Source: Myxococcota bacterium
Lineage (GTDB): Bacteria > Myxococcota > UBA727 > VGSZ01
Direction: 5' to 3'
Assembly: GCA_044349155.1 (NCBI GenBank)
Contig: JBIKRQ010000029.1
Span: 1 to 29,465 of the forward strand
DNA length: 29,465 nucleotides
Below, piece by piece: positions 2,499-27,616 of this stretch. A model generated the notes under the pieces. The model was given only the letters and a program-made list of their open reading frames with translations. It had not been told where the DNA came from and searched no databases. A program made the position numbers and the translations under genes. Positions within the stretch are counted from its first letter, which is position 1; each line of letters begins with the position of its first letter.

Positions 2499-4892
2499 CT
2501 ACTCGGCGTCGGCGCGCTTCAGCAGCGGAAAAGCGGGAGAAGGCGCAAAATCGAGAAACTTCTTCGCGGTTTCGAGAAGCCCGCGCCCTTCAACCGCCGC
2601 AAGCTCGCCGAAGTTTTCCGACAGCGAACTCAACAACTGCGCATCGCCCAACCGCTGCAACGACGCCGACAACTCCGGCGACACCGCCTGCGCCTGCCGC
2701 ACGCGGGCATCGGTGTGCGCCAACAAGAACGCGACCTCGAGGCGTTGGCGTTGCTCGAGCTCGTCGATCTCGACGGCGGCTTCCTTCGCCTTCGTCGCCA
2801 ACCGCAGCGCGCGCAGCGCACCGTCGGCCTGCACCGCCGACAACTCCTGCTCCGCCTGCATCGCCTGCACCGCGCGCTTGTGCTGCACACGACGACGCTC
2901 GAGCTCCCACGTGCCTTCTTCGAGCTCGGTCTCCAACTGCAGCGCCAACAGCTTCGTTTGCTGGTCCTGCTGCAACAACTGACGTGCCACTTCTTCGAGG
3001 CGTTGCTTGTCGCTCAGACTCGCCGTGGTCGAGGCCACGGTGACCGCGGCGCGCACGGTTTCCAGCTGTGAAGCATCGAGCAGATCGCGGACCCGCTCGT
3101 CGACGATTTCGCATTCGTGCACTTCGACATCGAACACGCACAGGCCGTTTTCGGCGAAGCGCAGACCTTTGCGTTCACCATCAGTGCGCTCGCCGAGCAC
3201 TGCATCGCGCACCAGGTCGACCACCTCGGCACGCAGCTGACGAATCGGCGTTTTTCGTGCGCGCCCCTTCACGATCGAGCCGGCGTGTTCGCACAACAGC
3301 TTCACGTAGTTGTCGACGACGAACCAGCGATCGGCATCGCCGTCGAACGACACGCGAAACGTCACGTGCACGCGCGCTTCCACCAGATCGGCCGACACCA
3401 CCTCGATGATGTCGCTGACCTGATTGCCCTGCACCTTCAGGTACACCGTGGGCAACAAGCGCTGGGTGGTCTTGGGCTTTCCCGTCGACAACGTGAGCGC
3501 TTCCAGGGTTTCGTCAAACGCGAGCAGCACCGTGTGCGGCCCCTGCACCACGCGCCGTTGTCCTCGACGGTCTTTGACGCACACGGCGTAGCCCGACCAC
3601 ACATCCACGCTCACCGCGCCGTCATACTTGCTGTCGAGCAGCAGCGTGGCGGGCTTGGTGAACGAGCGCGAGAAGGTATCGACACCGTCGTGGCTCGTGG
3701 CTTTTGTCGTCGTCGGCTGGACCCCCGACGCTGGGGCCACGACTGTTTTGGGCACCGTGCCGTTTCTGAGCGCGCGGTTGTGTTGCAGCGCTTCGTCGTT
3801 GCCCGGATACAGCAGCACGCTTTCGCGATCGGACAACGCGCGGCGCACCATGACCTCGTGGCGCGGGTCGGCGAGCAGCATGCGCGGGCCCACCACCAGG
3901 CGCACATCGCCGCTGGTTTTGTCGAGGACATAGCGGCCCTCGCCGGCGGGAATGGCCACCGCGTGGTGCTGCTCGGCACCGTTGCCCGGGCGGACCATCG
4001 CGTGCTCTTCGCGCGGGAAGTACAGGCGCGTTTGCGTGCCGGTGACGAAGAGCTCGTCGCCTTCGGCATGAGCAACGCCGTCGTCGTCGACGTACGGGGC
4101 GATCACCTTGATGTGCACCCCGGTGGTGGGGCTGAGCTCCAACGCGCGAAAAGCGCGCCGGCCGTTCACCTCGACGAAGCGCTCGTCGGGGGCGGGGAAC
4201 ACCACGGCCTCGCCGCGCACCATGCGCTTCTTGCCGTTTTCCTTGGCGAGCACGCAGTACTCGAGGCGCTGCAGGGTGACCGCATCACGCACGAAGCGCC
4301 CGTGCTCGTCGGCGACCACCTCCACACCATTGACGGGCATGTAGAAGCCAGCGCGATCGCCCTGCACCACAAACCGCTGGCCCACCTCAAACGTGAAGTC
4401 ATCGGCCACGACGTCGACAGCAAGGGCCAACGCGGCGTCCTTGTTCGCCAACGCTGCGTCGTAGACCTGCACGACCACGTACTGCGACGACGCCAGCCGG
4501 TGGCCCTCGACGACGCGCGCCATCTGCCCCGGCCACAGCGCAAAGCTCGTGGGCCCACGCACCACCACCTTCTTGCCGACGTGCAACTCCGCCAGCCCCG
4601 AGGCGACACCGACGCGTGGATGGCCGCCGTCCTGGGCGGGGTTCTTCAACACGAGGTACCAGTTCTCTGGTGCGGTCGCGAAGAGCTGAATCGCCGTGGA
4701 GAGTTCCATCGCGTGCACGAAGCGCCTGGCCTCGTCGTCGAAGATCACGGGTTGGTCGGTTTGCGCGAGCGACGTTTTGTTGGGGCCGACGTAGCAGTTG
4801 ATGTGGCCCTTGGTCGTGTCGAGCACCCAGGCGTATTCGTTGGGCGCGAGCACGAGTTCACGTTCGCGCGGGAGGCGGCGTTGCTCTTCCAT
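2499..4892 (-). CDS. mvp: Major vault protein (MVP) homologue: MVP repeat domains, SPFH/band-7-like shoulder, long coiled-coil cap helix (797 aa).
   Basis: Translation aligns by eye with eukaryotic MVP. MEEQRRLPRERELVLAPNEYAWVLDTTKGHINCYVGPNKT matches the MVP N-terminus (..YIHVLDQN..VEVGPKTY..). GEGRYVLDKTSGDVRLVVGPRMLLADPRHE matches human [28 protein letters not shown]. Repeated G[DE]E[WL]..G..Y.P units are present. The shoulder segment ..IVKGRARKTPIRQLRAEVVDLVRDAVLGERTDG..CVFDVEVHECEIVDERVRDLL.. is followed by an E/Q/L/A/R-rich cap helix. Start is at the internal Met (MEEQ..) with GAGG 7 nt upstream. The upstream 39 codons of the track ORF (MGQRARSRCRW..) look non-coding. Confidence 0.85.
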   Translation of the reverse strand: MEEQRRLPRERELVLAPNEYAWVLDTTKGHINCYVGPNKTSLAQTDQPVIFDDEARRFVHAMELSTAIQLFATAPENWYLVLKNPAQDGGHPRVGVASGLAELHVGKKVVVRGPTSFALWPGQMARVVEGHRLASSQYVVVQVYDAALANKDAALALAVDVVADDFTFEVGQRFVVQGDRAGFYMPVNGVEVVADEHGRFVRDAVTLQRLEYCVLAKENGKKRMVRGEAVVFPAPDERFVEVNGRRAFRALELSPTTGVHIKVIAPYVDDDGVAHAEGDELFVTGTQTRLYFPREEHAMVRPGNGAEQHHAVAIPAGEGRYVLDKTSGDVRLVVGPRMLLADPRHEVMVRRALSDRESVLLYPGNDEALQHNRALRNGTVPKTVVAPASGVQPTTTKATSHDGVDTFSRSFTKPATLLLDSKYDGAVSVDVWSGYAVCVKDRRGQRRVVQGPHTVLLAFDETLEALTLSTGKPKTTQRLLPTVYLKVQGNQVSDIIEVVSADLVEARVHVTFRVSFDGDADRWFVVDNYVKLLCEHAGSIVKGRARKTPIRQLRAEVVDLVRDAVLGERTDGERKGLRFAENGLCVFDVEVHECEIVDERVRDLLDASQLETVRAAVTVASTTASLSDKQRLEEVARQLLQQDQQTKLLALQLETELEEGTWELERRRVQHKRAVQAMQAEQELSAVQADGALRALRLATKAKEAAVEIDELEQRQRLEVAFLLAHTDARVRQAQAVSPELSASLQRLGDAQLLSSLSENFGELAAVEGRGLLETAKKFLDFAPSPAFPLLKRADAE

Positions 4893-5034: not shown

Positions 5035-5526
5035 CTAGCCCCGGTGCTTCACGACGATCTCGTGCGCTGCCGCCGCTGCGACGTAGAACGCCCGAACGCG
5101 GTCAAAGACCGTGCGCAACAGGCCACATTCGACCATGTCGAGCACGCGATCGGGCTCGCCCCAGCCCTCGAAGGAATACACGGGCAGGCTGTCAGCACCC
5201 TTGAAGAGCCGTGGGTAGCGCGCGGCGAGGAGGCCCTCGAAGGAGACCTCGTACGTCAGGTACGCGGCGACGAACGACACCTCTTCCGTCGACACCACCA
5301 CGGGTGTGAGGGCCAGAGCGCCAGGACCAACGACCCACGACGCAGGCGGGTCACCTTCGGCGGAGGTGCCGGTCAGCAGCACGTGCAGGGCGTGCCACGC
5401 GCGGTGCGTGTTGATGGTGGCCGTGGCGTGCGTCTCGAGCCAGTCCAGGTCGACGCTCGGGCGTGACGCCGCGTCGGGGAGGTCGTGAGGCAAGCGGTGA
5501 AGCCACGTCCACATCGCCATCAGCAC
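5035..5526 (-). CDS. Hypothetical protein (163 aa), encoded between the SAHH-fold giant and MVP.
   Basis: ORF MLMAMWTWLHRLPHDLPD..YLTYEVSFEGLLAARYPRLFKGADSLPVYSFEGWGEPDRVLDMVECGLL.. has globular-looking composition with W/Y/F content. There is a 24-bp gap to the upstream gene stop, suggesting a translationally coupled operon. No known motif recognised. Confidence 0.5.
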   Translation of the reverse strand: MLMAMWTWLHRLPHDLPDAASRPSVDLDWLETHATATINTHRAWHALHVLLTGTSAEGDPPASWVVGPGALALTPVVVSTEEVSFVAAYLTYEVSFEGLLAARYPRLFKGADSLPVYSFEGWGEPDRVLDMVECGLLRTVFDRVRAFYVAAAAAHEIVVKHRG

Positions 5527-5550
5527 CGTCCGTAGCGTCGACGTCGTTGC

Positions 5551-8401
5551 TCAGTCGTAGGCGGGAACGGTGCCGCCGAGCGGTGACTCGACCCAGGCCT
5601 TCTTGCCGAGCGGCTCCGCACCACGGTGCTCGCGCTGGGCGCCAACGACGTAGTCGAGGCCGCGTTGGGCTTCGGCAATCAGCGCGTCGTCGGCCGACGG
5701 GTGATCGATGAAGGCCTGCAACACGTCGATGGCGTAGGCCGCGCGCTGCGGCTTCTCGTTGCCCAGCGCCCACAAGAACGAAGCACCGTCGTTCAACATC
5801 GTCGTCAACTGCTCAGCAGTCCACGTCGGGTTGTTGATGGCGTGGACGTTGGCCTGGTGCTCGAAGCGCAGCTTGCTGCCCGTACGGTTGTCGAGCATGT
5901 GCTGCTTGAAGCCCTCGGGGCAGCGTGGGTGTGCAAACAAGATCTCGCCGAGCTGTCGCGACACGAGATCGCGCTCGTACGTTGTGCCCGTCGGCATCGT
6001 CTTGTGCCCGCGGGCGGCCTCGTCGACGGTGGGCTCGCGCACACAGGTGGTAAACGCCCACTTGCCGTCGGGACGCTTGTCGACGCCCCAGATGCTTGCA
6101 GGTGGGACTTCGTCGATGCGTGAAGCGTTGATGCCGGTGTAGGCGCGCGTGCACCAGTCAACGAGGCGGTCTTCTTGATCGCCGCGCACGTCTTCGTTTT
6201 TCATCAAGCGGGCGACGTGGGCGAGGATGCCGAGGTCGAGCACCTTGTCGAGGGCGGCGTCGGAAATCTCCTTCGGCTGCGCGAGTGCCTCGAGCAGGAT
6301 CGGGTTCATCGGCTCCTTCTCGAGGAAGGTGTCGATGAGGGCTTCGGTGACGGCTGGCGGGGTCGCCGGCGACTTCGCAATCGCCAACCACGCGGCCTTG
6401 CTGCCAAAGAAGCTCAAGTCGCCGACGCGCAACTCGATGTCGGACGACGCCGCGCGCGACTGCGTGAGGCCTTCCATCTGCGCCTGCAACTCAAACTGCT
6501 GACCAGCGTCGAGCTCGACGAGACCCGCAGCTTTCGTGCGCGAGCGCACGGCTTTTTCCGCACCCAACAACATCAGCGCCATCGTGTGGTCGATGAGCTC
6601 AGGGGCGATCGAATTCACGTCCTGGAAGTTTGCGGGCAAGCCATCGGCCACGGCGGTGACGATGCGGTTGTCTTTCGTCCAGTAGTGCCACGTCTCCTGC
6701 TCGTTGACCTTGGCCGCAAGGATACGGCGCATCACGCCGTCGTCGCCGCGGGTGAGGTCAGCGAGGCCCAGCGTGTCGATCTCGACGCGCTTGCTGGAAG
6801 CACTCGCCACAAACACCGGCGAGCTCATCGCGAGGAAGTCCTTCATGTCGATGCTGCGATGACCGCTGCAGCCGACAACGAGGAACTTCTTGTTGAGCGC
6901 ATCGCCCTTGTCGGTGAGCACCGTGTAGCCAAGGCCTTCGAGTTCCTTCTTGCGCGCGGGCGTGACGTACGGATCGAAGAAGGTGACGCGCGCGCCATCG
7001 CCCTTGAAGCTGTCGGCGACACCGAGGCCGACTTTGCCGCCGCCAACGATGAGCACTTCTTTGCGCGTGGGCGTGGTGGCCACTTCGTCGAGCACGCGGC
7101 GCACACACTGCACCACCGCATCACCGACCTGGGCACTCTCGAAGCGCTTGCCGTAGCTGCCAGCCACGTTGGCGATCGCGAACGTGGGCTTCGGATCGAT
7201 CTGCGAAATCTCGGTGAGGCCGCGCGTGGTCTGCTCGACGACGCAGAACAGGTGCGCGTGCTCTTTGTACTTCGTCGCGATGTACTTGCTGGCGTAGCCA
7301 CCGTCGTCGAGCACGAGGATGGGCTGGCCGTTTGCTTGATGACGCTCAAAGGCGCGATCGACCGCGGCGCACACGTGCTGCCACATGCCGTCGATGTCGC
7401 CGCGCTCGGGCACGGTGACCTTCAGGCCCATGCCGCGCTCGAGCGAGAGCTTCACCGCGGGGTTCTTTTGGTACGGCACGCCGACGTACTCGGCGTTGTC
7501 CATGTTCATGCCGCCACGCGCGAGCTCGGCGCACAACGGCACCGCCTGCCCCAGCATGTGCTGCACCATGACGACGTTGTGGTTCTTGAACGGCTTGCTC
7601 GACTCGAGGCGCGTGCCCACCGAGTTCGACAGCGGCAGCGTGAGCGGGACTTCGCTGATGCTTTGCAGGGCCGCATCGAGCTTCTGCGTCCAGACGTCGG
7701 CTTCGGTGGGCAGCGAGGTCCAATCGTCGTCGACGACCTTGCGCTGCGGCGCCGTCTGCCACTGCGGCATGAAGTCGTAGACCTTCTGCAACGTCGCGAT
7801 GAAGGCACCATCGAGGAAGGGTGCGGCCTTGGCACCAAGCAGGTTTGAAGCCTTGAAGCTGCGCGCCACGTCGTCGAGCGACATCCCCGGCGAGTCGATG
7901 TTGCGCATCCAGCGCGTGAGCTGGGCCGCGAGCAGCCAGTTCGGCTCGTTGCCCATGCCCACTTTGAAGGGCGCGCCAGGGTTCACCGCCGCGGGCGCGC
8001 CGTGCAGGCCCGCGGCGCGCAGAAACTCCGACTCCGACAGCTGCGACACGTGCTTCGGGTACGCCTTCGAAAACGCCGTCTTCATGGGGTTGTGCGCACC
8101 GAACTGCGGGCTGGCCACGCTTGGTGAGGTCACCAACGACTTCATGACCTCCTGCGGCGGCAGTTCGAGTGTGGCCGGGGCAAGGACCGCTGCGAGCAGC
8201 GGTTTTGCCGTGGTGCTCAGCTTGATGTCGGGCACCTGGCGGGCGACGGCGTCGAAGGAGAAGCGATCGACGGGGCGAGCCGGCCGAGGACTCCGTCGTG
8301 CTGGTCGACTCGGTGGCCTTCGCTGCTGCCTTCGCAGCGGCCGCTTCGGCACTGCGGCGGAAGCGTTCTGCATCGGCAGGGCTCTGAAGTCGGATCGCCA
8401 T
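5551..8401 (-). CDS. Large (~950 aa) protein with a complete S-adenosyl-L-homocysteine hydrolase (AdoHcyase)-like fold embedded between ~270-aa N- and ~280-aa C-terminal extensions (paralogue 1). The frame is interrupted by a +1 nt frameshift near 8272-8275.
   Basis: KPFKNHNVVMVQHMLGQAVPLCAEL matches AdoHcyase [44 protein letters not shown] matches NMILDDGGDLTNLIHTKY. VVEQTTRGLTEI matches ISEETTTGVHNL. The Rossmann segment VLIVGGGKVGLGVADSFKGDGARVTFFDP matches [53 protein letters not shown] matches NIFVTTTGCIDIIL..HF.QMK. The plausible N-terminus MAIRLQSPADAERFRRSAEAAAAKAAAK..SAGSP (ATG 8401, frame of ORF 7346..8410) joins ..VDRFSFDAVARQVPDIK.. (frame of ORF 5551..8508) only if one G is removed from the G4 run at 8272-8275. 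The uninterrupted frame 5551..8508 begins with ~85 junk-like codons. Confidence 0.6.
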
Positions 8402-8523
8402 GGTGAACAAATAGCAGCCACGACGTCGATTTGGCTCGTCGCCGCCGGCCAGATCCCCGCCAGGCTGTTTCGAGAACGCTTCAGAGCTTTCTGCCGATAT
8501 ATCAACAACTTAGCGTGAAACCA

Positions 8524-9783
8524 TCAGTCGCACGTGACGTAGAGCGGCTCGCTCGGAAACGGGCAGTCGGCGCCGTAGACCTCCAGGCCGAAGGTGTCGA
8601 CGGTGCAATCGCTCACGTCGCTTGTGCGGCAATCGTAGGCGAAGCCCCACGTGGGCAGCTCGCGGCTGCGGTTCTCGCCGACACCGCTGGTGCCAAACAA
8701 CTCGGAACACCACAGCTCTTCGGGGTGTGACGAGATGCTGCCGGTGCACACCTGGTGGTAGGCGCCGTCGACTTCGACCTCGAGGAAACCGTCGCGCGCG
8801 TTTTCGCCCTCGACGAGCCGCCCCGCCCCCAACGCGAGGCAGACGTAGCCGTGCAAGCCCGGTTCGATTTCGGCGTTGTAGCAGGTGCCAGCACCCTCGG
8901 GTGACGTGCAGCTCTCGTCCTCTTGCGCCGAGTCGCACGAGCAACTGCCCGAGTAGCACTGCTGATCGGCACCACACTGCCGACCACACGCGCCGCAGTT
9001 GTCTTCGTCTTCGCCGAAGTCGACGCACGTATCGCCGCAGCGATCGAACTCGTGCGCGGAGGTTGAGACGTTGTCGGCGCACAAGCACGTGGGCTCGATC
9101 GAGTCGCGCGTGATCGGGTCTTCGTCGACGCAACGCAACTGTGACGGGCACGCAACATCGCAGCGGCCGCAGTGATCGTCGTCGACAAAGCTGTCGTCAA
9201 CGCAAACGTCACCGCAGCGCACCTCGTTGCACACACCAGCACACGCGGCGGGTCCCTCGCACGTCAACGTGACGGTGAGGTCTTGCAGGGTTTCGTGGCC
9301 CGCTTGATCGAAGAAGCGCGCGCGCAACGGACGCGACGCGCTCGCCGCGAAGTCGATGGCGCGGGTGGTGTTGACCTCGTCCCAGCCAAGGCGAAGCTCG
9401 TACGCACCCTCGGCAGCGGAGGTTTGAAATGCGCCGTACGTGGCGTTGGTGACGGGGTCGAGCAGCACGCCGCCGATCAGGTCGTCGATTCCATCGGGGT
9501 CGGTGACGACGGCAGAGATCACGATGGTCGTCGACGGCGTGAACGTGGTGGTGTTGGCCGACAACGTCAAAATCGTGGGGCACCCGGCATCGAGACACGC
9601 GCCAGGCGGCGGCACATTTTCGCCTTCGCCTTCGCCGCTTTCGCCTTCGCCTTCATTGCCGTCGTCGTCGTCGTCGTCGTTGTTGGATGCGGGACGTCGC
9701 CCCGTTGGCTCGTCTTCGGTCGCCGGCGCACACGACACCACACACGAGATCAGCACAAGGCCAGGCAGGACACGCATTCTCAA
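8524..9783 (-). CDS. Secreted lipoprotein: lipobox, poly-Asp/(Gly-Glu) acidic linker, Cys-rich CG.C..C repeats, C-terminal SRCR-like domain.
   Basis: MRMRVLPGLVLISCVVSC (signal peptide plus L-I-S-C / V-V-S-C lipobox), then NNDDDDDDGNEGEGESGEGEGE. Multiple ..CGRCDVACPSQLRC.. and ..CGACGRQCGADQQCYSGSC.. motifs follow. The terminal ~100 aa RLVEGENARDGFLEVEVDGAYHQVCTGS..EELWCSELFGTSG..WGFAYDCRTSDVSDCTVDTFGLEVYGADCPFPSEPLYVTCD fits the SRCR pattern (RLV.G...G.VEV...G.WG.VC...ak.vC..LG...W.ddv.C.G.E..L.dC....G...C.h.EDagV.C). Confidence 0.7.
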   Translation of the reverse strand: MRMRVLPGLVLISCVVSCAPATEDEPTGRRPASNNDDDDDDGNEGEGESGEGEGENVPPPGACLDAGCPTILTLSANTTTFTPSTTIVISAVVTDPDGIDDLIGGVLLDPVTNATYGAFQTSAAEGAYELRLGWDEVNTTRAIDFAASASRPLRARFFDQAGHETLQDLTVTLTCEGPAACAGVCNEVRCGDVCVDDSFVDDDHCGRCDVACPSQLRCVDEDPITRDSIEPTCLCADNVSTSAHEFDRCGDTCVDFGEDEDNCGACGRQCGADQQCYSGSCSCDSAQEDESCTSPEGAGTCYNAEIEPGLHGYVCLALGAGRLVEGENARDGFLEVEVDGAYHQVCTGSISSHPEELWCSELFGTSGVGENRSRELPTWGFAYDCRTSDVSDCTVDTFGLEVYGADCPFPSEPLYVTCD

Positions 9784-9876
9784 ACTCCCGCGATGGCCAC
9801 GTCGTGCGCACCGTAGCGTGAAATCATTTCATTTGGCGCAGATCTTCGTGGTGTTATCGCTGGCATTCCGTCGGAG

Positions 9877-12594
9877 ATGTTGAACTCCAACCTTGCGCTC
9901 ACGTCGACAGCACGGAAGTCTGTTGTCGTGACCAAGGCCTCTGCCGACTCTGTGCAGCCTGTCGACACCGGCGGTCAAACGCTGGTGGCGAAGTCGCGGC
10001 CCACCACCGAGGCGCCCAACCTCGACGGCGAAGCGGTGCGCACGATCATCGAGCTCGAAGCCGCGCGCCCCACGTTGTCAGCGCAGCCGACGTTCACCGC
10101 ACGCCCCACCATCACGGTGCGGCCCACGTTCACCGCGCGCTCAACGCGATCGCTTACCCCCGAGGTCGATGGCTCCGCCGAGCTGCAAAACGCTGGCACC
10201 ATCGTCGAGCTCGCAGCGGGGGCGATCACGTCGGTGGTCGCGTCGTCGGAAGGCATCGCTGCTCCTGCCGCGCGAGCCACGTCGCAGGTCCGCTACGACC
10301 TCGTTGGCGAGATCGGACGCGGCGGTGGTGGCGATGTCTTCGAGGTCAAAGACAACGACCTCAAGCGCCACGTTGCGCTCAAGCGCTTGCGCAAAGAGCA
10401 CATTGATCGCGGGCTGCTCGCGTTGTTTCTGCAAGAGGCACAGCTCACCGCACAGCTCGAACACCCGAACATTGTCCCCGTGCATGAGCTGGGTTGCACC
10501 GCCACGGGCGAGCCATTTTTCACGATGAAGCGTGTGATCGGCCAGACGTTGCACGACGTGCTGGTGGGCGTTGCTCGTCGAGAACCGGCGTTTGTGGCGC
10601 GCTTTTCACGCACGCGGTTGCTCGTGGTGTTTTTGGAAATCACCCGCGGTGTGGCGCACGCGCATGCCCGTGGTGTGGTGCACTGCGATCTCAAGCCCGC
10701 CAACATTCTCATCGGCAACCACGGCGAAACCCTCGTCGCGGATTGGGGGTTGGCCACGCCCGATCGCCTGACGCCCGAGCCCATTGTTGGTGGCGCGCAG
10801 CTCTCGACCGTTGAGTGGCCCGGCGAACTCATCGACATGGGCGTGAGCGGCACGTTGCATGCGTTCGCGCCGGAGCAGGCACAGCATCTGCCCTTCGATC
10901 GCCGCATCGACGTCTACGCCCTCGGCGTCATCCTGTATGAGCTGCTCACCGGCGAGCGCCCGTTTGCGTGGAAGAACCTCGCTGAAGCAGCAGCGCCGCG
11001 ATCGTTGCCCGTGCCGCCGCGCGTGCGTGCGCCGCACAAAGACATCTCCGACGAGCTCGAGGCCATCTGCCTCAAGTGCTTGCAGCCCGATCCCAACAAC
11101 CGCTACGGCGGCGCCGGAGCCCTCAGCCTGGCGATGGAGAACGCGCTCACGGGCTCACGTCGTCGACAACAGGCGCAGCACGTGACCAGCGAAGCGCAGG
11201 TGTATCTCGCCACCATGCGTACGCTGCAGGCGCAGCAACAGCAGGTGCAGCACGAGATCGCCGCCCACCTCGACGTGATCAAACCCTGGGACGACGAAGC
11301 GGTGAAGGCACCCTTGTGGGCGGCCGAGCAGCGGCAGCAGCAGTTGGAGTTCGCCGTCGACGAAGCGCTCGCGTCCACCCTCGACTGCTTCAATCAAGCC
11401 CTCGGCCTCGACCCCGGCTTCGTTGCTGCCGAAGACGCGTTGGCCGACCTGCACCTCGAGCTGTTTCTCGAAGCCGAAGCGCACGGCCGTCATCGGGATC
11501 AACAGTTCCACCGCCGCCTCGTCGAGCGCCACCACCGTGGTCGTCATGCCGCGGTGTTGGCGGGGCGCGGCATCGTCACGCTGCGGCCGCGCATCAACGG
11601 TGTCGACGCCGTGGAGGCGCGCATCAGCGGTGTGGTGCTCGTTGAAGAGGGCAAGCGCATCGTTGCGGGCGAGGCATTGCTGTTGCCTGATGGCGTCGTG
11701 CACGAGTTGTCGGTGCCGATGGGCAGTGCGCTGTTCACCATCACGCCACCAGCACACGAGCCGCCATTGGCCACCACGACGGTGCACGTCTACGTCGGCC
11801 GCTCCGGGCGCGTTGACCTCGACGTGAACCTGGTACCGCAAGCCGTACTCGTTGGTGGACACGCCGGCGGTGTGCACATTCCGGCGGGGCCGTTTCTCGC
11901 CGGTGGCGATGCCGAAGCACAAAACGCGGGCCCGCGTCGCGAGGTGGTGCTGGCCGACTTTGTCATCGCCAAAACGCCGGTCACGTGTGCTGAGTACCTG
12001 GTGTTCTTGAACGATGTGGCGCGCACCGATCTGGCCGCCGCACGTCGTCACGTGCCGCGCACCAAGCCCGAGGGCGGCGCGTTGTGGGAGCCCGACGAAC
12101 ACGGCGTGTACGCGCTGCCGACGGCCGACGCCGACGGCAATCCTGTCATCGCCGACGCTCCCGTGATGGGCGTGAGCTTCTTCGACGCCGAGGCCTACTG
12201 CGCGTGGAAGGCCCGCCTCGACGGCGTGCCCTGGCGTTTGCCGAGCGAAGACGAGTGGGAGAAAGCCGCGCGTGGCGTCGACGGCCGCTTCTTTCCGTGG
12301 GGCAACGGCTTCGATCCCACGTTCTGCAAAATGGCCACGTCACGTCCGGGGCGCCCACAACCCGAAGCGGTGATGAGCTACCCCGTCGACGTCAGCGTCT
12401 ATGGCGTCGCCGACACTGCTGGCGGCATTCGCGAGTGGTGCAACAGCTACTACGACGCCACCAAAGAGACGCGCACGCTGCGGGGCGGGGCCTGGTACTT
12501 CAACCCGAGCTTCTGCCGCACAGCGTTTCGTCACGGGTACCTGCCACACATCGTGTTCACGAACTTCGGCTTTCGCCTCGCCCGCGACGTGTAG
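9877..12594 (+). CDS. Eukaryotic-like Ser/Thr protein kinase fused to a C-terminal FGE-sulfatase (SUMF1/EgtB-type) domain.
   Basis: Kinase motifs: G-loop IGRGGGGDVFEV, VALKRL (beta3 Lys), catalytic loop HCDLKPANIL, DWGLA (DFG-equivalent), APEQ, DVYALGVILYELLTG. The C-terminal region ..ADAEAQNAGPRREV.., ..RGGAWYFNPSFCRTAFRHGYLPHIVFTNFGFRLARD matches the FGE-sulfatase signature (RGGSW...R.A.R......GFR). The ~130-aa N-terminal low-complexity leader precedes the kinase domain. Confidence 0.85.
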   Translation: MLNSNLALTSTARKSVVVTKASADSVQPVDTGGQTLVAKSRPTTEAPNLDGEAVRTIIELEAARPTLSAQPTFTARPTITVRPTFTARSTRSLTPEVDGSAELQNAGTIVELAAGAITSVVASSEGIAAPAARATSQVRYDLVGEIGRGGGGDVFEVKDNDLKRHVALKRLRKEHIDRGLLALFLQEAQLTAQLEHPNIVPVHELGCTATGEPFFTMKRVIGQTLHDVLVGVARREPAFVARFSRTRLLVVFLEITRGVAHAHARGVVHCDLKPANILIGNHGETLVADWGLATPDRLTPEPIVGGAQLSTVEWPGELIDMGVSGTLHAFAPEQAQHLPFDRRIDVYALGVILYELLTGERPFAWKNLAEAAAPRSLPVPPRVRAPHKDISDELEAICLKCLQPDPNNRYGGAGALSLAMENALTGSRRRQQAQHVTSEAQVYLATMRTLQAQQQQVQHEIAAHLDVIKPWDDEAVKAPLWAAEQRQQQLEFAVDEALASTLDCFNQALGLDPGFVAAEDALADLHLELFLEAEAHGRHRDQQFHRRLVERHHRGRHAAVLAGRGIVTLRPRINGVDAVEARISGVVLVEEGKRIVAGEALLLPDGVVHELSVPMGSALFTITPPAHEPPLATTTVHVYVGRSGRVDLDVNLVPQAVLVGGHAGGVHIPAGPFLAGGDAEAQNAGPRREVVLADFVIAKTPVTCAEYLVFLNDVARTDLAAARRHVPRTKPEGGALWEPDEHGVYALPTADADGNPVIADAPVMGVSFFDAEAYCAWKARLDGVPWRLPSEDEWEKAARGVDGRFFPWGNGFDPTFCKMATSRPGRPQPEAVMSYPVDVSVYGVADTAGGIREWCNSYYDATKETRTLRGGAWYFNPSFCRTAFRHGYLPHIVFTNFGFRLARDV

Positions 12595-12608
12595 GCGTGT
12601 CCGTTCGG

Positions 12609-13808
12609 CTACGGCGCAACACACTCGTCGACAGAGCGCGGCCGACACTGCTCATCAGCGCGGCAGTCCGCAGCAACCGTGCAGACCCGGCCGGCTTCAC
12701 CGTCGAGGTTGACGCATCGATCGCGCACGACGCCGTCACAGAGGTCGCTCGCGCACTCGGCGTTCTCGGCGCACCGCTGGCCATCTGGTCGACGACACGT
12801 GCCGTTTGCGCAGAGATCGCCAAAGAGATCCTGCGCGCAGTCCGTGTCTGCGGTGCACGCGTCGCCAATGCTGCCGACCTCGACGCAAACACCTTCACGG
12901 CACTCTTGGGCCACGCCACCAAACAGCCCGAGCAGTGCGCAACGAACGGAATCGGTGCACGTCGCAGCGCACGTGCCGTCGAAGCAGGAATTGAGGCCAC
13001 ATTCGGCGTCGCTGTCGCAGCCTCCATTCAGGGCCTGTGACACACACACGCCGTCGAAGCAGCCGGCGAACACCGATGCGCAGTCGGTGTCGGCGGTGCA
13101 GCTGTCGCCAAGCGAACGCGTCTGGCACTCCCCGTCGTTGCACACCAGATCGCTGGCGCAGTCGTCGTCGTCGCTGCACAAAGCACCGATGTCGCCCGAT
13201 GCGCAGGCATTCGCGACGCAGTGGGTGCTGCTGCAATCGTTGTCGACGACGCAATCAGCGCCATCAGCACCTGAGCCGCAGCGCTCTTCGACGCAAAAGC
13301 CGCTGTCGCAACCGTCGTCATCGGTGCACGCGCCGCCGAGTGCGCTCGAGGCCACCAGGCAACGGTCACCGTCGCTCACGCCGCTGGTGCAGATGTAGAC
13401 GTCGCCTTGAAATGTGGCGCACCCGGTGTCGCGCGAGCACGGTTGGCCCGGCGAAGCACGACACGCGCCGTCGTCGCCGCAGGAATCGCTCGCGCAGTGG
13501 GTATCGGCGTTGCATTCCTCGCCATCGAATCGCGTGTGCTCGACGTAGCAGGTGGGCACAGTGCGTCCGTCGAAGGCTGCGCAAAACAGGTTGGCGCCGC
13601 AGGCGTCTGTGCCAAAGGCGAGGCAGCACGATTCACTGGGGCCGCGGCTGCGCTGAGCAAGGGCGCATGCATCTTCATCGTCGACGTCCACCTCGTCGTC
13701 GTCCACCTCATCGACGCCACTGTCTGGACCAGCGGTGGTGGGCGCTGGACACGACACAACGAGCAACGCGAGCGACATGGCAAACAGCACGGCTGATGAG
13801 CGGGGCAT
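12609..13808 (-). CDS. Secreted lipoprotein with acidic linker and ~10 tandem Cys-rich repeats (C..D.DC.S..C....C type).
   Basis: MPRSSAVLFAMSLALLVVSC (lipobox VVSC), then DEVDDDEVDVDDED. Repeated ..GEECNADTHCASDSCGDDGACR.., ..GGACTDDDGCDSGFCVEERC.., ..GALCSDDDDCASDLVCNDGECQ.., ..GDSCTADTDCASVFAGCFDGVCV.. follow. It is convergent with the kinase gene and immediately downstream (same strand) of SAHH-fold paralogue 2. Confidence 0.7.
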   Translation of the reverse strand: MPRSSAVLFAMSLALLVVSCPAPTTAGPDSGVDEVDDDEVDVDDEDACALAQRSRGPSESCCLAFGTDACGANLFCAAFDGRTVPTCYVEHTRFDGEECNADTHCASDSCGDDGACRASPGQPCSRDTGCATFQGDVYICTSGVSDGDRCLVASSALGGACTDDDGCDSGFCVEERCGSGADGADCVVDNDCSSTHCVANACASGDIGALCSDDDDCASDLVCNDGECQTRSLGDSCTADTDCASVFAGCFDGVCVSQALNGGCDSDAECGLNSCFDGTCAATCTDSVRCALLGLFGGVAQECREGVCVEVGSIGDACTADTDCAQDLFGDLCANGTCRRPDGQRCAENAECASDLCDGVVRDRCVNLDGEAGRVCTVAADCRADEQCRPRSVDECVAP

Positions 13809-13885
13809 GAGACCTCCAAAAAGCGGAAGTCAGTGCTGCCATTTCAACGTGCGACGCAGTGGGACACATGTCCCAGTCTCCGAAC

Positions 13886-16800
13886 TCACCCCAACATGAG
13901 CGGCGCATGCCGGAGCGACTCAAGCTCCACGGCATCTCCCGGGAGCGTGTAGTCGATGACGACGTGGAAGGGGCGCTCCGGATCGGGTCGATGAACGCCA
14001 CGAAACACCGCGTCGTGCGGCAGGCGCACCGCGCGAGCATCGCCACCTGGGACCAACGGCGTGAGCACCAGTGCGCCGTCTGCCGCCCGCCCGACGACCA
14101 GCGGCGTCTCGCTTGCCGGCAGCAGCTGCACGGCTTCCACTTCGACGACGGAGCGCGGCAGTCGGATCTGGGCAAAGTGGCGCCCGACGGTGGTGTCGTG
14201 CACGTCGTGGACAAAGAGGCGCGCTGGTGTGCGCTGCACCTCGACAACGACCTGCTCCGCAGCGCTGACGTACAGCGCTGGCCCTGTGCCCTTGCGTGTG
14301 AGCGTCTCGAGTTGCGCCGTGCCGGGAAACGAACGCTGAAGGGTGGAGCCCACCTCGACGACGATCGATGTCGCAGCGCCGACATCGCGCACAGCCACGC
14401 GGCGATCGAAAGGTTGCGCAGGTGTTGCGGTGAACGCGCTCGTGGCGCGCTCGATCATGGAAAACCACTTGCGTCCAGTACTCGCATCAACGCCGTCGAC
14501 GTACCACGCGTTTGCTTCGGGCTCGGTGAGTGCCACCAGCGACCGGGGCACCGATGGCAACGTCACCGTCAGCGATGCAGCGCCCACGACGTCGCCGCGG
14601 CTCGTGTCGACAGCGCGCACCTGGCCGTCGTCGTCGGCGAAGATGTACAAGCCGGGGCGCTCGCCGACCTGGTTCGGCGGCGGGCACACGCCACGAGGCA
14701 AGCGTGCAAGGTAGGCCATCCACTCGTCGTGCCGTGCGGCGCCAACGACGAGGTCGGGACGCTGTGCAGCTCCGCGCGGCGACGCAGCTGTGCGATCCAG
14801 AACGGGCGTCTGCGGTCCACCGCGGGCGTCCCACGTGTTCTCGGCGAGCGTGCCGAGTGCAGGATCGAGCTCGACGAGACCAGGTGCTGAGGCCGACACA
14901 TCTTGCACGACGGCGGCGAACAACAACGCGCGCGTCAGCGCGATGTTCTCGGCCGTGAGGTTCTCGTATCCGTCGCCGTGAAAGTTGGCGGGACGGCCTC
15001 GATTCAGAATGGTGATGCCCTCGCTGCGGTGGCTGTCGATCTGCACCGCATCGAATTCAATCGCTGCCGACGACCCGCTCATCAACGCACCATCGAAGTC
15101 CTTGAGCATGTCGCCGCGCAGCGAGGTGTGGCCGGTGCACGACAAGATGACGTCGACGTGGTCGCTGATGCGATCGACGGAGTCGTGGGCGACAAAGCCT
15201 GCGGTGGTGGCACGCGCACGTGCTTCGGCCTTGGTGTCGACGAGCTCGACGTCGAAGCCTGCTGCACGCAAGTGCTTCGCCGTGTTGATTCCAATGGTGC
15301 CAGCGCTCACGACGCCGACACGCGCCTGGTCCGACAAGCGGCTGGCCTGCGTTGACTCCAACAGCAGCGCCTCGGCGAGCGCCCAGCCAACAACGTCGCC
15401 TTCCCGCTGTTTTGGCGCCGACGAAGCAACAGCAACCGTGCGGTAGGCGATGGGCTGTTTCTTCAACTCGGTCAGGCCGCGCGTGGTCTGCTCAACAGCA
15501 TCGGTGAACGTGGGGTCGAAGAGCTGTTGCAAGGTGGTCGAAGACGCGCCGCTGTCGGGGACCGGCTTTTGTCCGGCGATGATCGTCTGCAACATGCCGC
15601 CGTCGTCGAGCAGCTTCCACCCGTTGGCTGGGGCGACCGCCGTGCGCACGACTTCGTTGAGAAAGCGGTGCACTTCGCCGATGCGGTGTTCCTCAAACCC
15701 ACGGGTGTTGCCGCCCGTATCGCTGCCCACCATCACGTTGACGCCGAGGGTGCGCAGATACGACGCGACGAGGGGATTCGACGCGTACGGTGTTCCAAGG
15801 ATGAACATCTGCGAAGGGTCCATGCCCTTTTCGATCATCGCCTCGATCATCGGCACGATCGTGGGAAACAGATGCTGCACAGCAACAAGGCCGCGGCCCG
15901 CCACGGCGTCGTGGGGCACCCGATCTTTGACGACGTCGAGGACCGCGAGCTGCTTCGGCACAAGCCCACTGTCGCGCACGAGCACATCGATCAGCGGCCG
16001 CGCCGTGTGCGCTGGCATCGACAGGCGCAGCTCTTCGATCACCCGCGAGGCAAACGTGTAGTTCGGGCGCGCAGGCGTACCGAGGGCAGCAGCATCGTTG
16101 AGCGAGCGGGCGATGGCAGTACCGACGGCGCCAAAGTCACGGCAGAATCGCGGCCAGTCGACCTGGTTTGTCGTCGACGAGGGATAGCGGGCGAGCAGTT
16201 GCACCAACGCTGCGGCCACGACAGCCGGATCGGCGTTCGAGGCGCCCTGGCGCACGAGGGGCGAAAGGGCTGCGCCAAGGCTCTGCTGACCACGCCGAAC
16301 CATGAAGCCGCCGACGCCATCGAGCGTGTGGTTCAGCAGGCCGGGCGCACCCGCAAGTTCACGGGCGGCGATCTGCAAGGCGCCACCGGCACCGTAGCCG
16401 AGCACCTCGAGCAATTTCGTCGACGTCACGCGCGTGCTGATGCCATCGGGGAGCGTTACAGCGGCAGCCGCCGACAACGACGCAGCGCCGGTGACGCGCG
16501 CAGCCTTCGCCGCGGTCGGCGCCTCAACCACATCGACGACGACAGCAGGTGTGCAGAGGGCCGCGAGCACGCGGTCGCACTCGCTCGATGGACACAAGCG
16601 GTCGATCTTTTCGCGCAGGGTGAGCTGCTGCTCGACCCAACGGTCCTGTTGTGTTGTCCAATGTCCCGACGTTGGTGGCGTCGGCAGTCGTTGCAACGTG
16701 CCAGCGGAGAACGCCTCCAGCGCATTCTTCAGCGCCTGGCCAACGACAACGCCTTCGGCGCCGAGCTCCTCGAGAACATCAACGGGGACTGGTTTGTTCG

Positions 16801-17143
16801 CATCGAAGTGAACAGCCCGCGCGAGCAACACGGCCAGCAGCGCAGCGCCGTCGCCGACGTTCGGTTCACCAGCAACAGCGGTGCGCGTCCGCAGCGCCAG
16901 ATCGAGTTTGCTCTCGCGGTGCTTGGTAAGCGCGTTGGCGACGAGCGCGCCCACCTCGGGGGCAGCGTCGAGCACGTCGAGCAGCTGGTGCATTGGCGGC
17001 GTGTGGGACAGGCCCCAGGGGCTGCTGGTGGCGCCAACCACCGGCGGGTCGCGGCTCAGGCCAGCACGCAAAATTCTCGCCTGGAAGTCGTTCGACGACG
17101 ACAACCACTGAGCGGGGATCACCTGCGCGCGAATGACGGGCAT
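13886..17143 (-). CDS. Large (~1085 aa) protein with an AdoHcyase-like (SAHH) fold core, paralogue 2 of the 5551..8401 gene.
   Basis: The same motif series as paralogue 1. DRVPHDAVAGRGLVAVQHLFPTIVPMIEAMIEKG (substrate-domain His). LGTPYASNPLVASYLRTLGVNVMV. WKLLDDGGMLQTIIAG (DDGG). AVEQTTRGLTELK. Rossmann ARVGVVSAGTIGINTAKHLRAAGFDVELVDT. VDVILSCTGHTSLRGDMLKDFDGALMSGSSAAIEFD. Start at MPVIRAQVIPAQW (ATG 17143); the 26 upstream codons of the track ORF look non-coding. Confidence 0.7.
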   Translation of the reverse strand: MPVIRAQVIPAQWLSSSNDFQARILRAGLSRDPPVVGATSSPWGLSHTPPMHQLLDVLDAAPEVGALVANALTKHRESKLDLALRTRTAVAGEPNVGDGAALLAVLLARAVHFDANKPVPVDVLEELGAEGVVVGQALKNALEAFSAGTLQRLPTPPTSGHWTTQQDRWVEQQLTLREKIDRLCPSSECDRVLAALCTPAVVVDVVEAPTAAKAARVTGAASLSAAAAVTLPDGISTRVTSTKLLEVLGYGAGGALQIAARELAGAPGLLNHTLDGVGGFMVRRGQQSLGAALSPLVRQGASNADPAVVAAALVQLLARYPSSTTNQVDWPRFCRDFGAVGTAIARSLNDAAALGTPARPNYTFASRVIEELRLSMPAHTARPLIDVLVRDSGLVPKQLAVLDVVKDRVPHDAVAGRGLVAVQHLFPTIVPMIEAMIEKGMDPSQMFILGTPYASNPLVASYLRTLGVNVMVGSDTGGNTRGFEEHRIGEVHRFLNEVVRTAVAPANGWKLLDDGGMLQTIIAGQKPVPDSGASSTTLQQLFDPTFTDAVEQTTRGLTELKKQPIAYRTVAVASSAPKQREGDVVGWALAEALLLESTQASRLSDQARVGVVSAGTIGINTAKHLRAAGFDVELVDTKAEARARATTAGFVAHDSVDRISDHVDVILSCTGHTSLRGDMLKDFDGALMSGSSAAIEFDAVQIDSHRSEGITILNRGRPANFHGDGYENLTAENIALTRALLFAAVVQDVSASAPGLVELDPALGTLAENTWDARGGPQTPVLDRTAASPRGAAQRPDLVVGAARHDEWMAYLARLPRGVCPPPNQVGERPGLYIFADDDGQVRAVDTSRGDVVGAASLTVTLPSVPRSLVALTEPEANAWYVDGVDASTGRKWFSMIERATSAFTATPAQPFDRRVAVRDVGAATSIVVEVGSTLQRSFPGTAQLETLTRKGTGPALYVSAAEQVVVEVQRTPARLFVHDVHDTTVGRHFAQIRLPRSVVEVEAVQLLPASETPLVVGRAADGALVLTPLVPGGDARAVRLPHDAVFRGVHRPDPERPFHVVIDYTLPGDAVELESLRHAPLMLG

Positions 17144-17258
17144 GTCGAGTTCTACTCTGTTCACGCGATGTGGGGGTGACATTTGCGGGGAAACTTCCCG
17201 CCGATCACCCCGTGAGTTCATGGATTTGTCGTGCCGACAACCCCATGAATATCAACAT

Positions 17259-17284
17259 GAATTCGACCGCCAGCGGTCGAATTC
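17259..17284. promoter_or_regulatory. Perfect 26-bp palindrome GAATTCGACCGC-CA-GCGGTCGAATTC in the divergent promoter region between SAHH-fold paralogue 2 and the Crp/Fnr-family regulator gene. Candidate operator.
   Basis: Direct reading shows 12-bp arms that are exact reverse complements with a 2-nt spacer. Nearby direct repeats catgaat/catgaatt and the inverted pair ttcatgg..ccatgaa occur at 17219-17262. Confidence 0.5.
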
Positions 17285-17329
17285 ATCCATGATATGCGCG
17301 CCTCTTCAGGCGTGCGACGTTCGCCGACA

Positions 17330-18088
17330 ATGAACAGAGCCGCACTCTGCACGCTCCTCCGCGCGCATCCGATCCTGAAGGATGTCGACGACGTTGGCAT
17401 TGATGCCATCGCTACCGCCGGCATCGTCAAGACCTACTGCGCTGGCGACGTGCTCACGCGCGAAGGCGACAAGGCCTGGGCCTATTGGTTTCTCGTCGTG
17501 GGGCACACCCGGGTGTTTTACACGTCGCCAGAAGGCCTCACCGTCACGGTGAAGCTGTTTGCCGCGCCTGCCGCGTGGGCCGAGATGCAGGTGTTGCACG
17601 ACTGGGTACACACCGAGCACTGCGTCGCCGAAGACGACGTCACGTGTGTGTGTCTGCCGAAGCTGGAGTTCGAGCGCCTCCTCGAGCTCCACCCGCGCTT
17701 CATGAAGAACGTGCTGGTCGATGCTGGCGCGCGCTTTCTTATCACAGCACAGCACGAGCGCGCGCTCGCGTTTCTGAAGGTGCCGCAGCGGCTTGCGTAC
17801 CTGCTGCTGTCGTACGCGCGCCTGCATGGCGAAGACGTCGTCGACGGTGTGTTGATCCGCCACCGCCTGTCGCAGGAAGAACTGGCCAACGGTCTTGGCG
17901 TTGCGCGCAAGAGCGTGGTGCGTGCGTTCACCGACTGGATCGACGCCGGTGTGCTCGAAAAGCGCGGCCTCTACTACGTCATCGTTGACGTGCAGCGTCT
18001 GCGCGAAGCAGCGCCCGACGACGTGCTTGGGATCGACTGGGTTGCTGGTGGCCGCCTCGCCGACGGCATCGGAAGCCGTCGGCGGTAA
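17330..18088 (+). CDS. Crp/Fnr-family transcriptional regulator (cNMP-binding-like beta-barrel plus C-terminal HTH).
   Basis: MNRAALCTLLRAHPILKDVDDVGIDAIATAG..TYCAGDVLTREGDKAWAYWFLVVGHTRVFY..GLTVTVKLF..AWAEMQVL.. (degenerate cNMP-binding barrel; GE replaced by AE, no RxA phosphate-binding motif). Crp-type HTH RLSQEELANGLGVARKSVVRAFTDWIDAGVLEKRG. Start at the internal ATG 17330. Confidence 0.75.
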   Translation: MNRAALCTLLRAHPILKDVDDVGIDAIATAGIVKTYCAGDVLTREGDKAWAYWFLVVGHTRVFYTSPEGLTVTVKLFAAPAAWAEMQVLHDWVHTEHCVAEDDVTCVCLPKLEFERLLELHPRFMKNVLVDAGARFLITAQHERALAFLKVPQRLAYLLLSYARLHGEDVVDGVLIRHRLSQEELANGLGVARKSVVRAFTDWIDAGVLEKRGLYYVIVDVQRLREAAPDDVLGIDWVAGGRLADGIGSRRR

Positions 18089-23394: not shown

Positions 23395-23441
23395 CGTGAA
23401 AATGACATCATTGTGCTCATATCGTTCATCTGGAGCGAACG

Positions 23442-24350
23442 ATGTCGCAGCTCGATGCCTTGAACTTTCATCACCTGCGCTACTTCTGGGCGGTCGCGCA
23501 CGACGGCAACCTCACGCGCACAGCACAACGTCTGCGCGTGGCGCCGTCGGCGTTGTCGTCGCAGATCGGCAGCCTCGAGGAGCAGCTGGGAGCGCTGCTG
23601 TTTGCACGCCGTGGGCGAAGCCTGGTGCTGACCGAAACGGGGCAACTCGTGTTGAGCTACGCCGACGACATCTTCGCGCAGGGCCAGGCGTTGCTCGCGA
23701 CGTTGACGCAAGGGCGCAGTGCCCACGATGTGTTGCGCGTGGGTGCTGAAGCCACGCTGTCGCGCAACTTTCAGGAGTCGTTTCTGAAGCCGTTGCTCGA
23801 CGACGACAGTGTTCGCCTGTCGCTGCGGGCGGGCACGCTTGAGACGTTGTCTGCGGCACTTCGGGCGCACGACCTCGACGTGGTGTTGAGCCACCGCACG
23901 CCGGCCCACGCCGATGAGCTCGTGTGTCGAGCGATCGCCGCTCAAGAAGTGTCGCTGGTGGGCCCGCGCGGCACGCGCTTTCGCTTCCCCGACGACCTCG
24001 CCCGGGTGCCGCTGCTGCTGCCAGGCCACAACTCCGAAGTGCGCCAACAGTTCGATGCGGTGTGTGCCCAGCTCGGCGTGACACCGCTGGTGCGCGCCGA
24101 AGTCGACGACATGGCCACCCTGCGTCTGCTGGCCCGCGATACCCGCGGCGTGGCGCTGTTGCCCGCCGTCGTGGTGCGCGATGAGCTGCGCGCTGGTGTG
24201 TTGCGCGAGTACGGCGTGGTGCCCGGCGTGGTCGAGCACTTCTACGCGCTCACCGCGCGACGGGCCCACCCACATCCGCTGCTGGCACCGCTGTTGGCGC
24301 AGAGTGCCGACGCGTTGCTCGAACGCGCCCGTCGACGTCGTCGAGCGTAA
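23442..24350 (+). CDS. LysR-family transcriptional regulator, divergent from dabBA.
   Basis: N-terminal LysR HTH FHHLRYFWAVAHDGNLTRTAQRLRVAPSALSSQIGSLEEQLGALLFARRGRSLVLTETG plus a C-terminal substrate-binding domain. A 47-bp divergent spacer separates it from dabB. Confidence 0.85.
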   Translation: MSQLDALNFHHLRYFWAVAHDGNLTRTAQRLRVAPSALSSQIGSLEEQLGALLFARRGRSLVLTETGQLVLSYADDIFAQGQALLATLTQGRSAHDVLRVGAEATLSRNFQESFLKPLLDDDSVRLSLRAGTLETLSAALRAHDLDVVLSHRTPAHADELVCRAIAAQEVSLVGPRGTRFRFPDDLARVPLLLPGHNSEVRQQFDAVCAQLGVTPLVRAEVDDMATLRLLARDTRGVALLPAVVVRDELRAGVLREYGVVPGVVEHFYALTARRAHPHPLLAPLLAQSADALLERARRRRRA

Positions 24351-26036: not shown

Positions 26037-26076
26037 TCAACACCCGGCGATGGCTCAGCGATCGCTCAGCGACGGC

Positions 26077-27525: not shown

Positions 27526-27616
27526 GGCGTCGTCTATCACCTTTCAACGCACCGGCGTCGATGACAGGGCCGAGCACACGTGCTATAGGTCGCGCCCCCC
27601 CTTCAAGGAGAACCCC

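Follow-up and report, generated by a model that had tools for sequence, protein, structure and literature searches.

A contig of 29,465 nucleotides from a Myxococcota bacterium (GenBank assembly GCA_044349155.1, contig JBIKRQ010000029.1; 29.5 kb, 65% G+C), analysed at full length and called the window below, encodes on its minus strand two long proteins, P1 and P2. The initial annotation described both as ∼1000-residue proteins built around a complete S-adenosylhomocysteine hydrolase (SAHH) fold, with large extensions at either end. The locus thereby raises the question of what a fold best known from a housekeeping enzyme is doing in two such proteins. We find that the fold assignment holds, that the active site has been rebuilt in a strictly conserved manner, and that the recurrent neighbours of the genes are regulators. 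P1 and P2 represent an uncharacterised SAHH-like family, whose core is probably a signalling-associated module that holds NAD and either binds a ligand or catalyses a reaction.

The central ∼400 residues of P1 and of P2 form a complete two-domain SAHH fold with a substrate-binding domain and an NAD-binding Rossmann domain. The TIGR00936 (ahcY) model matched P1 with E = 7.5e-18 over model positions 20–368 of 416, and the match therefore covers both domains. All significant PDB sequence matches of P1 were SAHH, and a profile of 37 family sequences retrieved SAHH from the PDB at 1.5e-14. AlphaFold gave good models for both proteins (pLDDT 79.9 and pTM 0.72 for P1; pLDDT 80.7 and pTM 0.71 for P2). 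For either model the best 50 Foldseek matches were all SAHH, with a target-normalised TM score of up to 0.74 for P2 and with a sequence identity of only ∼18%. A different Rossmann family lacking the substrate-binding domain, which had been named as the alternative assignment, is excluded by the two-domain ahcY match together with the SAHH-only structural matches.

The SAHH signature blocks reported in the initial annotation were also found. VQH(M/L), DDGG and EQTTRG are present in both proteins; P1 carries GGGKVG and GCSGH, and P2 carries the degenerate versions SAGTIG and SCTGH. Residues of P1 are numbered here on a 940-aa version that begins at an in-frame alternative start (ATG 8373). The two proteins align with each other over the whole core and not only over the Rossmann segment (BLASTP, 2e-16; hhalign of P1 240–631 with P2 393–774, probability 99.8%, E = 1.5e-28). 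Beyond the core they do not align, and each extension is restricted to its own clade. We regard P1 and P2 as two anciently diverged members of one family.

P1 and P2 miss all curated SAHH cut-offs (TIGR00936, NF004005, PF05221 and PF00670). P1 scored 64.5 bits on TIGR00936, where the cut-off is 497.6, and 26.9 on PF00670, where it is 27. PF05221 matched neither protein, and P2 was recognised in the profile libraries by generic Rossmann models only. We mapped the active-site residues against human SAHH, using a human sequence whose residue numbering was checked. Equivalents of His55, Asp131, Glu155, Thr157/158, Lys186 and Asn346 are retained, of which His55, Asp131, Lys186 and Asn346 make up the ribose-3′-oxidising core. 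The GxGxxG motif (SAGTIG in P2) is retained as well, and so is the acidic residue after beta-2 (D467 in P1, D636 in P2), which selects NAD over NADP.

Around these residues the pocket differs from that of SAHH. Glu156 is replaced by Gln, Thr159 by Arg, Asp190 by Glu, Asn191 by Ser or Gly and His301 by Ser, and a new invariant Tyr is present. The HMTxET and NIFSTQD segments are gone and a PY(Q/A/S)xNP motif stands in their place, while the equivalents of T57, E59 and His353 are lost. Each subunit of the SAHH tetramer has a C-terminal tail whose Lys426 and Tyr430 complete the NAD site of an adjoining subunit. This tail is missing too, the aligned core stopping before it and being followed by unrelated extensions of ∼300 residues. 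The SAHH catalytic set, whose conservation had been put forward as a check on the annotation, is thus kept in its oxidising part and altered or lost elsewhere. As the curated cut-offs are missed, the pocket is rebuilt and the motifs and tail are lost, P1 and P2 would not be expected to act as housekeeping hydrolases of S-adenosylhomocysteine (SAH).

The altered signature is strongly conserved. Counts were made on 149 family representatives. His was present in 138 of 139, the new Tyr in 141 of 141 and the second Asp of DDGG in 137 of 143; the Glu-Gln-Thr triplet was present in 145, 142 and 145 of 145 sequences, respectively, the Lys in 140 of 144 and the Glu in 142 of 144. Ser occupies the His301 position in 142 of 144, and PxNF is conserved at ∼98%. 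Lys, Asp and His are nearly invariant at a mean identity of 16%. We summarise the signature of what we call the EQTTRG family as VQH..., PY, DDGG, EQTT(R)G, (A/S)xSxxKxxE, GxGxxG, (S/T)G, SS(K/A)xxE and PxNF in an SAHH fold; every block is found in both P1 and P2. As this altered signature is almost invariant among the representatives, it points to a selected ligand or active site and not to a decaying one. The nucleoside- or NAD-dependent role that had been considered plausible from the fold is in keeping with the near-invariance of the NAD motif and of the His/Asp/Lys/Asn core.

When 1.84 billion representatives were searched exhaustively with HMMER, the P1 profile retrieved 186 clusters at E ≤ 1e-30. 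The full P1 architecture occurs in only ∼8 of these, and the remainder share the core alone. Some members are stand-alone or fragmentary (∼400–600 aa), and many large ones (∼1000–1900 aa) have the core at the C-terminus; the N-terminal 600–1400 residues of 38 large members gave no Pfam matches. Very few proteins have the full P2 architecture. It was seen in six proteins of a 5.8-billion-protein collection (P2 and five full-length homologues) and additionally in locus L023, and a further word-indexed search with the P2-family profile returned the same six proteins and nothing beyond them. Where sources are named, they are metagenome-assembled genomes of Myxococcota or Deltaproteobacteria and one Geodermatophilus isolate. 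The family thus comes mostly from uncultured Myxococcota, with rare stand-alone versions of ∼420 aa elsewhere. One of these, the 422-aa member P0166 (WP_457002856.1) of the cultured actinobacterium Geodermatophilus sp. SYSU D00814, would offer a convenient starting point for experiments. The genomic context of a 1136-aa relative, P0056, was uninformative.

Members of the family are named either “hypothetical protein” or, by an automatic JGI label, “S-adenosylhomocysteine hydrolase”, and in our view the latter is wrong for them. We found no curated model or defence-system model that describes the family, and a search of the literature on SAHH-like proteins in connection with myxobacteria, MVP or kinases gave no description of it. 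This agrees with the initial annotation, in which the architecture was not recognised as a described family.

The extensions have the sizes first reported (∼250–400 aa at the N-terminus and ∼280–380 aa at the C-terminus). For P1, a long minus-strand gene is present as annotated, but the interval 5551..8401 given for it is 2851 nt long, which is not divisible by 3, and spans a 1-nt frame break. The conserved N-terminus MAIRLQSPADAERF... (ATG 8401), which is common to P0001 and P0003–P0008, is out of frame with the main 5551..8508 open reading frame (ORF). Dropping one C from a run of four at 8272–8275 yields an uninterrupted ORF of 949 aa that is collinear with P0001 over the full length (85% identity). 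Either the assembly is in error at this point or the frameshift is real.

P1 has 42 full-length homologues with 37–86% identity. Its N-terminal extension begins with a conserved M-A-I-R..P.D..RF..SA peptide, which is followed by a disordered linker rich in S, T, P and A and then by a helical module (aa ∼140–240). In the predicted model residues 1–68 have pLDDT below 50, and helices are seen across 73–260; the part of the module at aa 143–213 is also found in larger relatives. The C-terminal extension, seen in the P1 family only, is modelled, at a pLDDT around 90, as largely helical apart from two small beta hairpins. An impression of LRV/HEAT-like repeats in this region, from the motifs SPATPPxVL, HPRCPxG, NPxWTxxEL and DHPSA, found no support in Pfam. 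The phmmer matches of the N-terminal extension of P2 are confined to the P2 family.

We compared all proteins of the window with those of 24 loci encoding relatives. The robust conserved partners are regulators, namely a Ser/Thr kinase with a C-terminal FGE-sulfatase domain (STK-FGE) for the P1 clade and a Crp/FNR-type regulator for the P2 clade. STK-FGE orthologues adjoin P1 homologues in six distinct loci, among them L004/L005, L024, L006, L007 and L014. The pairs are divergent, convergent or tandem and lie scattered across the P1 clade in a neighbour-joining tree based on the core. In L004/L005 the kinase gene lies between two SAHH-like genes, the same layout as in the window: a 614-aa SAHH-like paralogue (5059–6903, minus strand) overlaps the kinase stop by 4 nt, and a divergent P1 orthologue is found on the other side.

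The Crp/FNR-type regulator accompanies six of eight P2-like genes and is directly adjacent in five. Its homologue adjoins the P2-like gene in L009, L018, L021 and L023 and is two genes away in L010. In E. coli CRP, the Arg82/Ser83 pair holds the cAMP phosphate. This pair is absent from the Crp-like regulators when they are compared with the E. coli CRP sequence, and the P2-clade regulator would be unable to bind cAMP in the classical way. The intergenic region between P2 and the divergent Crp-like gene of the window contains a 30-bp palindrome, ATGAATTCGACCGC-CAGC-GGTCGAATTCAT, a candidate operator that is AT-rich for the contig and that did not turn up in the other P2-like loci. Across the loci examined, the sole nucleoside-metabolism neighbour is an adenosine deaminase gene in L001 (8674–9843, plus strand), which directly precedes the P1 homologue of Archangiaceae and has the same orientation. 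The STK-FGE and Crp partners, the altered catalytic signature, the extent of the family (at least 186 clusters) and the P1 frame break are all additions to the initial annotation.

Two other kinds of neighbour had been emphasised instead, namely MVP, with which P1 was placed in an operon, and a Cys-rich lipoprotein paired with each SAHH-like protein. P1, a DUF1877 ORF and MVP do follow one another in the same orientation, with gaps of ∼25–140 nt depending on the MVP start and with no terminator-like site between them, but MVP is absent from all 24 loci encoding relatives, including those of P1 orthologues with 74% and 71% identity. The closest metagenomic relative of MVP (67% identity, locus L025) has no SAHH-like, DUF1877 or lipoprotein homologues near it. 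The co-occurrence of long SAHH-like proteins with MVP that had been proposed as a search was thus not seen in any of these loci. Rfam and tRNA scans of the window returned no matches, and we therefore see no vault-RNA-like gene in it.

Likewise, both lipobox ORFs are present next to the SAHH-like genes, but the pairing is not with a conserved homologous partner. No related locus contains a homologue of lipoprotein 1, and lipoprotein 2 has one only in L010 (56% identity), beside a P2 orthologue of 67% identity. In a crude lipobox screen of 20 non-redundant related loci, which are phylogenetically non-independent and were searched with a rough gene caller and regular expression, 10 of the 42 genes immediately next to an SAHH-like gene encoded lipoproteins, as did 16 of the 184 other genes in these loci (Fisher one-sided p = 0.009). 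We treat this enrichment as a lead only. A third lipoprotein-like ORF, with long (Gly-Glu)n runs at either end, lies elsewhere on the contig (27398–28321, plus strand); such acidic-linker lipoproteins are therefore common here, which weakens the argument from adjacency. A lipobox family of ∼580 aa without a Pfam match recurs near P2-like genes, mostly those without a Crp neighbour (L019 5141–6862 and 12267–14036, L020 13831–15585, L023 3421–5184). MVP and the Cys-rich lipoproteins would thus appear to be neighbours on this contig and not defining partners.

The family can be set beside several known systems. With AhcY (TIGR00936; PF05221 plus PF00670), P1 and P2 share the NAD Rossmann domain, the acidic residue after beta-2 and the retained active-site equivalents listed above. 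They differ from it in the pocket changes, in the lost motifs and tail and in the added extensions, and the family is linked to regulators and not to methyl-cycle genes. AHCYL1/IRBIT and AHCYL2 (PDB 3mtg and 3gvp) resemble P1 in that the N-terminus is disordered and rich in Ser and Thr, and they use an SAHH fold outside SAH hydrolysis, as P1 probably does. Their phosphorylation-based regulation may have a counterpart in P1, to judge from the neighbouring kinase. In sequence the AHCYL proteins are closely related to SAHH and retain the catalytic residues, whereas P1 and P2 form a deep separate bacterial branch with its own invariant signature and unrelated extensions. 3mtg and 3gvp are among the structural matches and ranked no better than true SAHH; the kinship is remote. 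D-2-hydroxyacid dehydrogenases and CtBP have a related NAD domain, and CtBP, an NAD(H)-sensing transcriptional co-regulator, offers a possible functional analogy. P1 and P2 are set apart from these proteins by a substrate-binding domain and signature motifs of the SAHH type.

A further parallel comes from Mycobacterium tuberculosis, where PknB phosphorylates the TTT of the EETTTG motif of SahH and thereby lowers its NAD affinity (PMC3719076). As in the P1 clade, an SAHH-fold protein is here associated with a Ser/Thr kinase, and the threonines of the motif are kept in the family as EQTT(R)G, so that phosphorylation of P1 can be put forward as a hypothesis. In contrast to P1, SahH is a canonical, essential SAH hydrolase, and no genomic pairing with a kinase is described for it (PMC3719076). 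By analogy, PknB and SahH could serve as a precedent for kinase control of P1.

Taken together, we favour the explanation, with a probability of about 0.55, that the EQTTRG family binds NAD together with a ribosyl or nucleoside ligand that is not SAH and operates in regulatory circuits. The core would most likely hold NAD and bind or transform such a ligand, and the clade-specific extensions (helical in P1, helical and all-beta in P2) would fit the module to different partners. P1-clade proteins would be coupled to the STK-FGE kinase, being either controlled by it or signalling with it. P1 itself may be a kinase substrate, through the threonines of EQTT(R)G or through the S/T-rich N-terminal linker. 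P2-clade proteins, in turn, would work with the Crp/FNR-type regulator.

Several points weigh against this explanation. Every functional statement about the family is an inference, and a near-invariant signature does not prove catalysis: human AHCYL1/IRBIT retains catalytic-type residues and yet is inactive. The replacement of Glu156 by Gln, of Asn191 by Ser or Gly and of His301 by Ser would be expected to cripple SAHH chemistry, and in P2 the first Rossmann glycine is replaced by Ser. In about half of the P1-clade loci, the 10 kb on either side contain no kinase. Moreover, Ser/Thr kinases abound in myxobacterial genomes, so that some of the adjacency could be due to chance. The extensions of P1 and P2 gave no matches to Pfam, NCBIfam or PDB families, and the frame-broken P1 of this contig could be a pseudogene.

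The main rival takes the substitutions at face value and regards the proteins as non-catalytic sensors. They would be dead pseudoenzymes in which the SAHH fold, much as in IRBIT/AHCYL1 or CtBP, serves only as a sensor or scaffold that binds NAD(H) or adenosine and relays the metabolic state to the kinase or Crp protein through the extensions. The three changes just named and the loss of His353 and of the C-terminal tail would suit such a role, as would the regulatory neighbours, the resemblance of the disordered S/T-rich N-terminus of the P1 clade to the phospho-regulated N-terminus of IRBIT, and the occurrence of CtBP, at lower Z, among the structural neighbours. However, the Lys, Asp and His of the oxidation and elimination steps remain nearly invariant at the low mean identity, which fits chemistry at least as well as binding, and we consider the sensor reading rather unlikely. 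Even more doubtful is the proposal that the EQTTRG proteins are an unrecognised class of NAD-dependent enzymes that make, destroy or sense a nucleoside-derived small-molecule signal in Myxococcota. In such a new second-messenger-like pathway the adjacent Crp-type protein, which does not depend on cAMP, would read the product or ligand on the P2 side, and a dedicated Ser/Thr kinase would switch the P1 clade. A bolder variant, which we hold more weakly still, has the conserved N-terminal peptide of P1 direct the protein to a bacterial vault (MVP) particle.

At the conservative end, the JGI label may be taken literally and the proteins seen as bona fide SAH hydrolases with accessory domains. Their best matches are always SAHH, and the adenosine deaminase gene in L001 would fit such an enzyme. 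We nevertheless judge this highly improbable, given the scores of 64.5 bits on TIGR00936 and 26.9 on PF00670 and the missing PF05221 match, the low identity to SAHH, and the absence of the homocysteine- and adenine-side motifs, of His301 and His353 and of the Lys426/Tyr430 tail. The gene order of the window suggests other partnerships. Lipoprotein 1, P1, the DUF1877 ORF and MVP share one orientation, are separated by short gaps and lack a terminator-like site, and P1 could be a component or cargo of a vault-like (MVP) particle that uses its conserved N-terminal peptide and disordered linker as a targeting signal. There is, however, no MVP within 10 kb of 13 other P1-clade loci, where it could sit elsewhere in the genome, and the nearest MVP relative lacks an SAHH-like neighbour, so that this reading too has very little chance of being correct. 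Somewhat less improbable, though still quite unlikely, is that an SAHH-like protein and an envelope lipoprotein form a two-gene module, as the neighbour enrichment would suggest. Against it stand the crude nature of that screen and the shared ancestry of its loci, and the lipoproteins are mutually unrelated, except for lipoprotein 2 with its L010 homologue and a Peptidase_MA_2-like trio. In addition, P1 and P2 have no signal peptide, which makes it hard to see how they would act directly with a partner across the membrane.

The features of the window that bear on these proteins are collected in Table 1. The G+C content at third codon positions of the long ORFs is 0.77–0.86, which is of the coding type (P1, 0.85; P2, 0.77).

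Table 1. Features of the window around P1 and P2, with the evidence for each.
Feature	Position	Strand	Evidence and remarks
MVP homologue, bacterial	2499..4892 or 5009	-	Pfam MVP_shoulder 1.3e-17, Vault_3 4.4e-10; downstream of P1
DUF1877 (YfbM-like) ORF	5035..5526	-	Pfam 2.3e-6; between P1 and MVP
P1 (paralogue 1)	5551..8401	-	ORF list, 42 full-length homologues, frame analysis; 949 aa once repaired
P1 C-terminal extension, ∼300 aa	5551..6453	-	Predicted model; clade-specific
P1 SAHH-like core, aa 240–640	6454..7656	-	TIGR00936, PDB profile, Foldseek, residue map
P1 N-terminal extension	7657..8401	-	Predicted model, composition
Frame break in P1, C4 homopolymer	8272..8275	-	1-nt deletion restores frame
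Lipoprotein 1	8524..9783	-	Upstream of P1; lipobox, acidic linker, Cys-rich; NCBIfam NF041328 2.5e-8 (MXAN_6577-like), Pfam Stig1
Ser/Thr kinase with C-terminal FGE-sulfatase domain	9877..12594	+	Pfam Pkinase 1.4e-38, FGE-sulfatase 2.5e-40; between both SAHH-like gene blocks
Lipoprotein 2	12609..13808	-	Downstream of P2; lipobox, acidic linker, Cys-rich repeats
P2 (paralogue 2), 1085 aa	13886..17143	-	Sequence identical to database protein P0045
P2 C-terminal extension	13886..14818	-	All-beta from ∼aa 830, ∼25 strands
P2 SAHH-like core, aa 393–775	14819..15967	-	
P2 N-terminal helical extension, aa 1–392	15968..17143	-	Predicted model, phmmer
30-bp perfect palindrome	17257..17286	.	Divergent intergenic region of P2 and the Crp-like gene
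Crp/FNR-family regulator	17294..18088	+	Divergent from P2; Pfam cNMP_binding 7e-12, HTH_Crp_2 5.5e-14

PADLOC returned nothing for P1, P2 or MVP, and the kinase matched generic kinase models only. From ORF sizes and translations, the region 19442–24350 presumably contains a gene pair, one gene for a DabA (DUF2309)-like protein and the other for a DabB-like membrane protein that resembles NADH dehydrogenase subunit 5. A divergent gene adjoining this pair is presumably of the LysR type and the one alongside at 18106–19353 presumably RtcB-like, both read from their translations. In the stretch 24627–27540 (minus strand), a gene for a patatin-like phospholipase (3.9e-28) lies directly downstream of a same-strand gene for a 487-aa protein, which has a weak, sub-cut-off Pfam match to ivWA, a domain of the FtsH ternary conflict systems. 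These two genes may form a defence or conflict module.

Apart from one housekeeping reaction and the IRBIT regulators of eukaryotes, hardly any role of the SAHH fold is known. What is new here is a variant of this known fold that lies outside the curated families: a deep bacterial branch in which the NAD- and ribose-oxidising core is kept, the pocket is rebuilt and strictly conserved, large extensions are fused to it, and the genes are linked to a Ser/Thr kinase and to Crp-type regulators. Nothing on bacterial vaults follows from the present evidence. If the ligand or reaction can be identified, it would reveal new chemistry or a new sensing mode for a classic fold, would put right the automatic “S-adenosylhomocysteine hydrolase” labels of metagenome databases, and would provide a handle on unexplored myxobacterial signalling.

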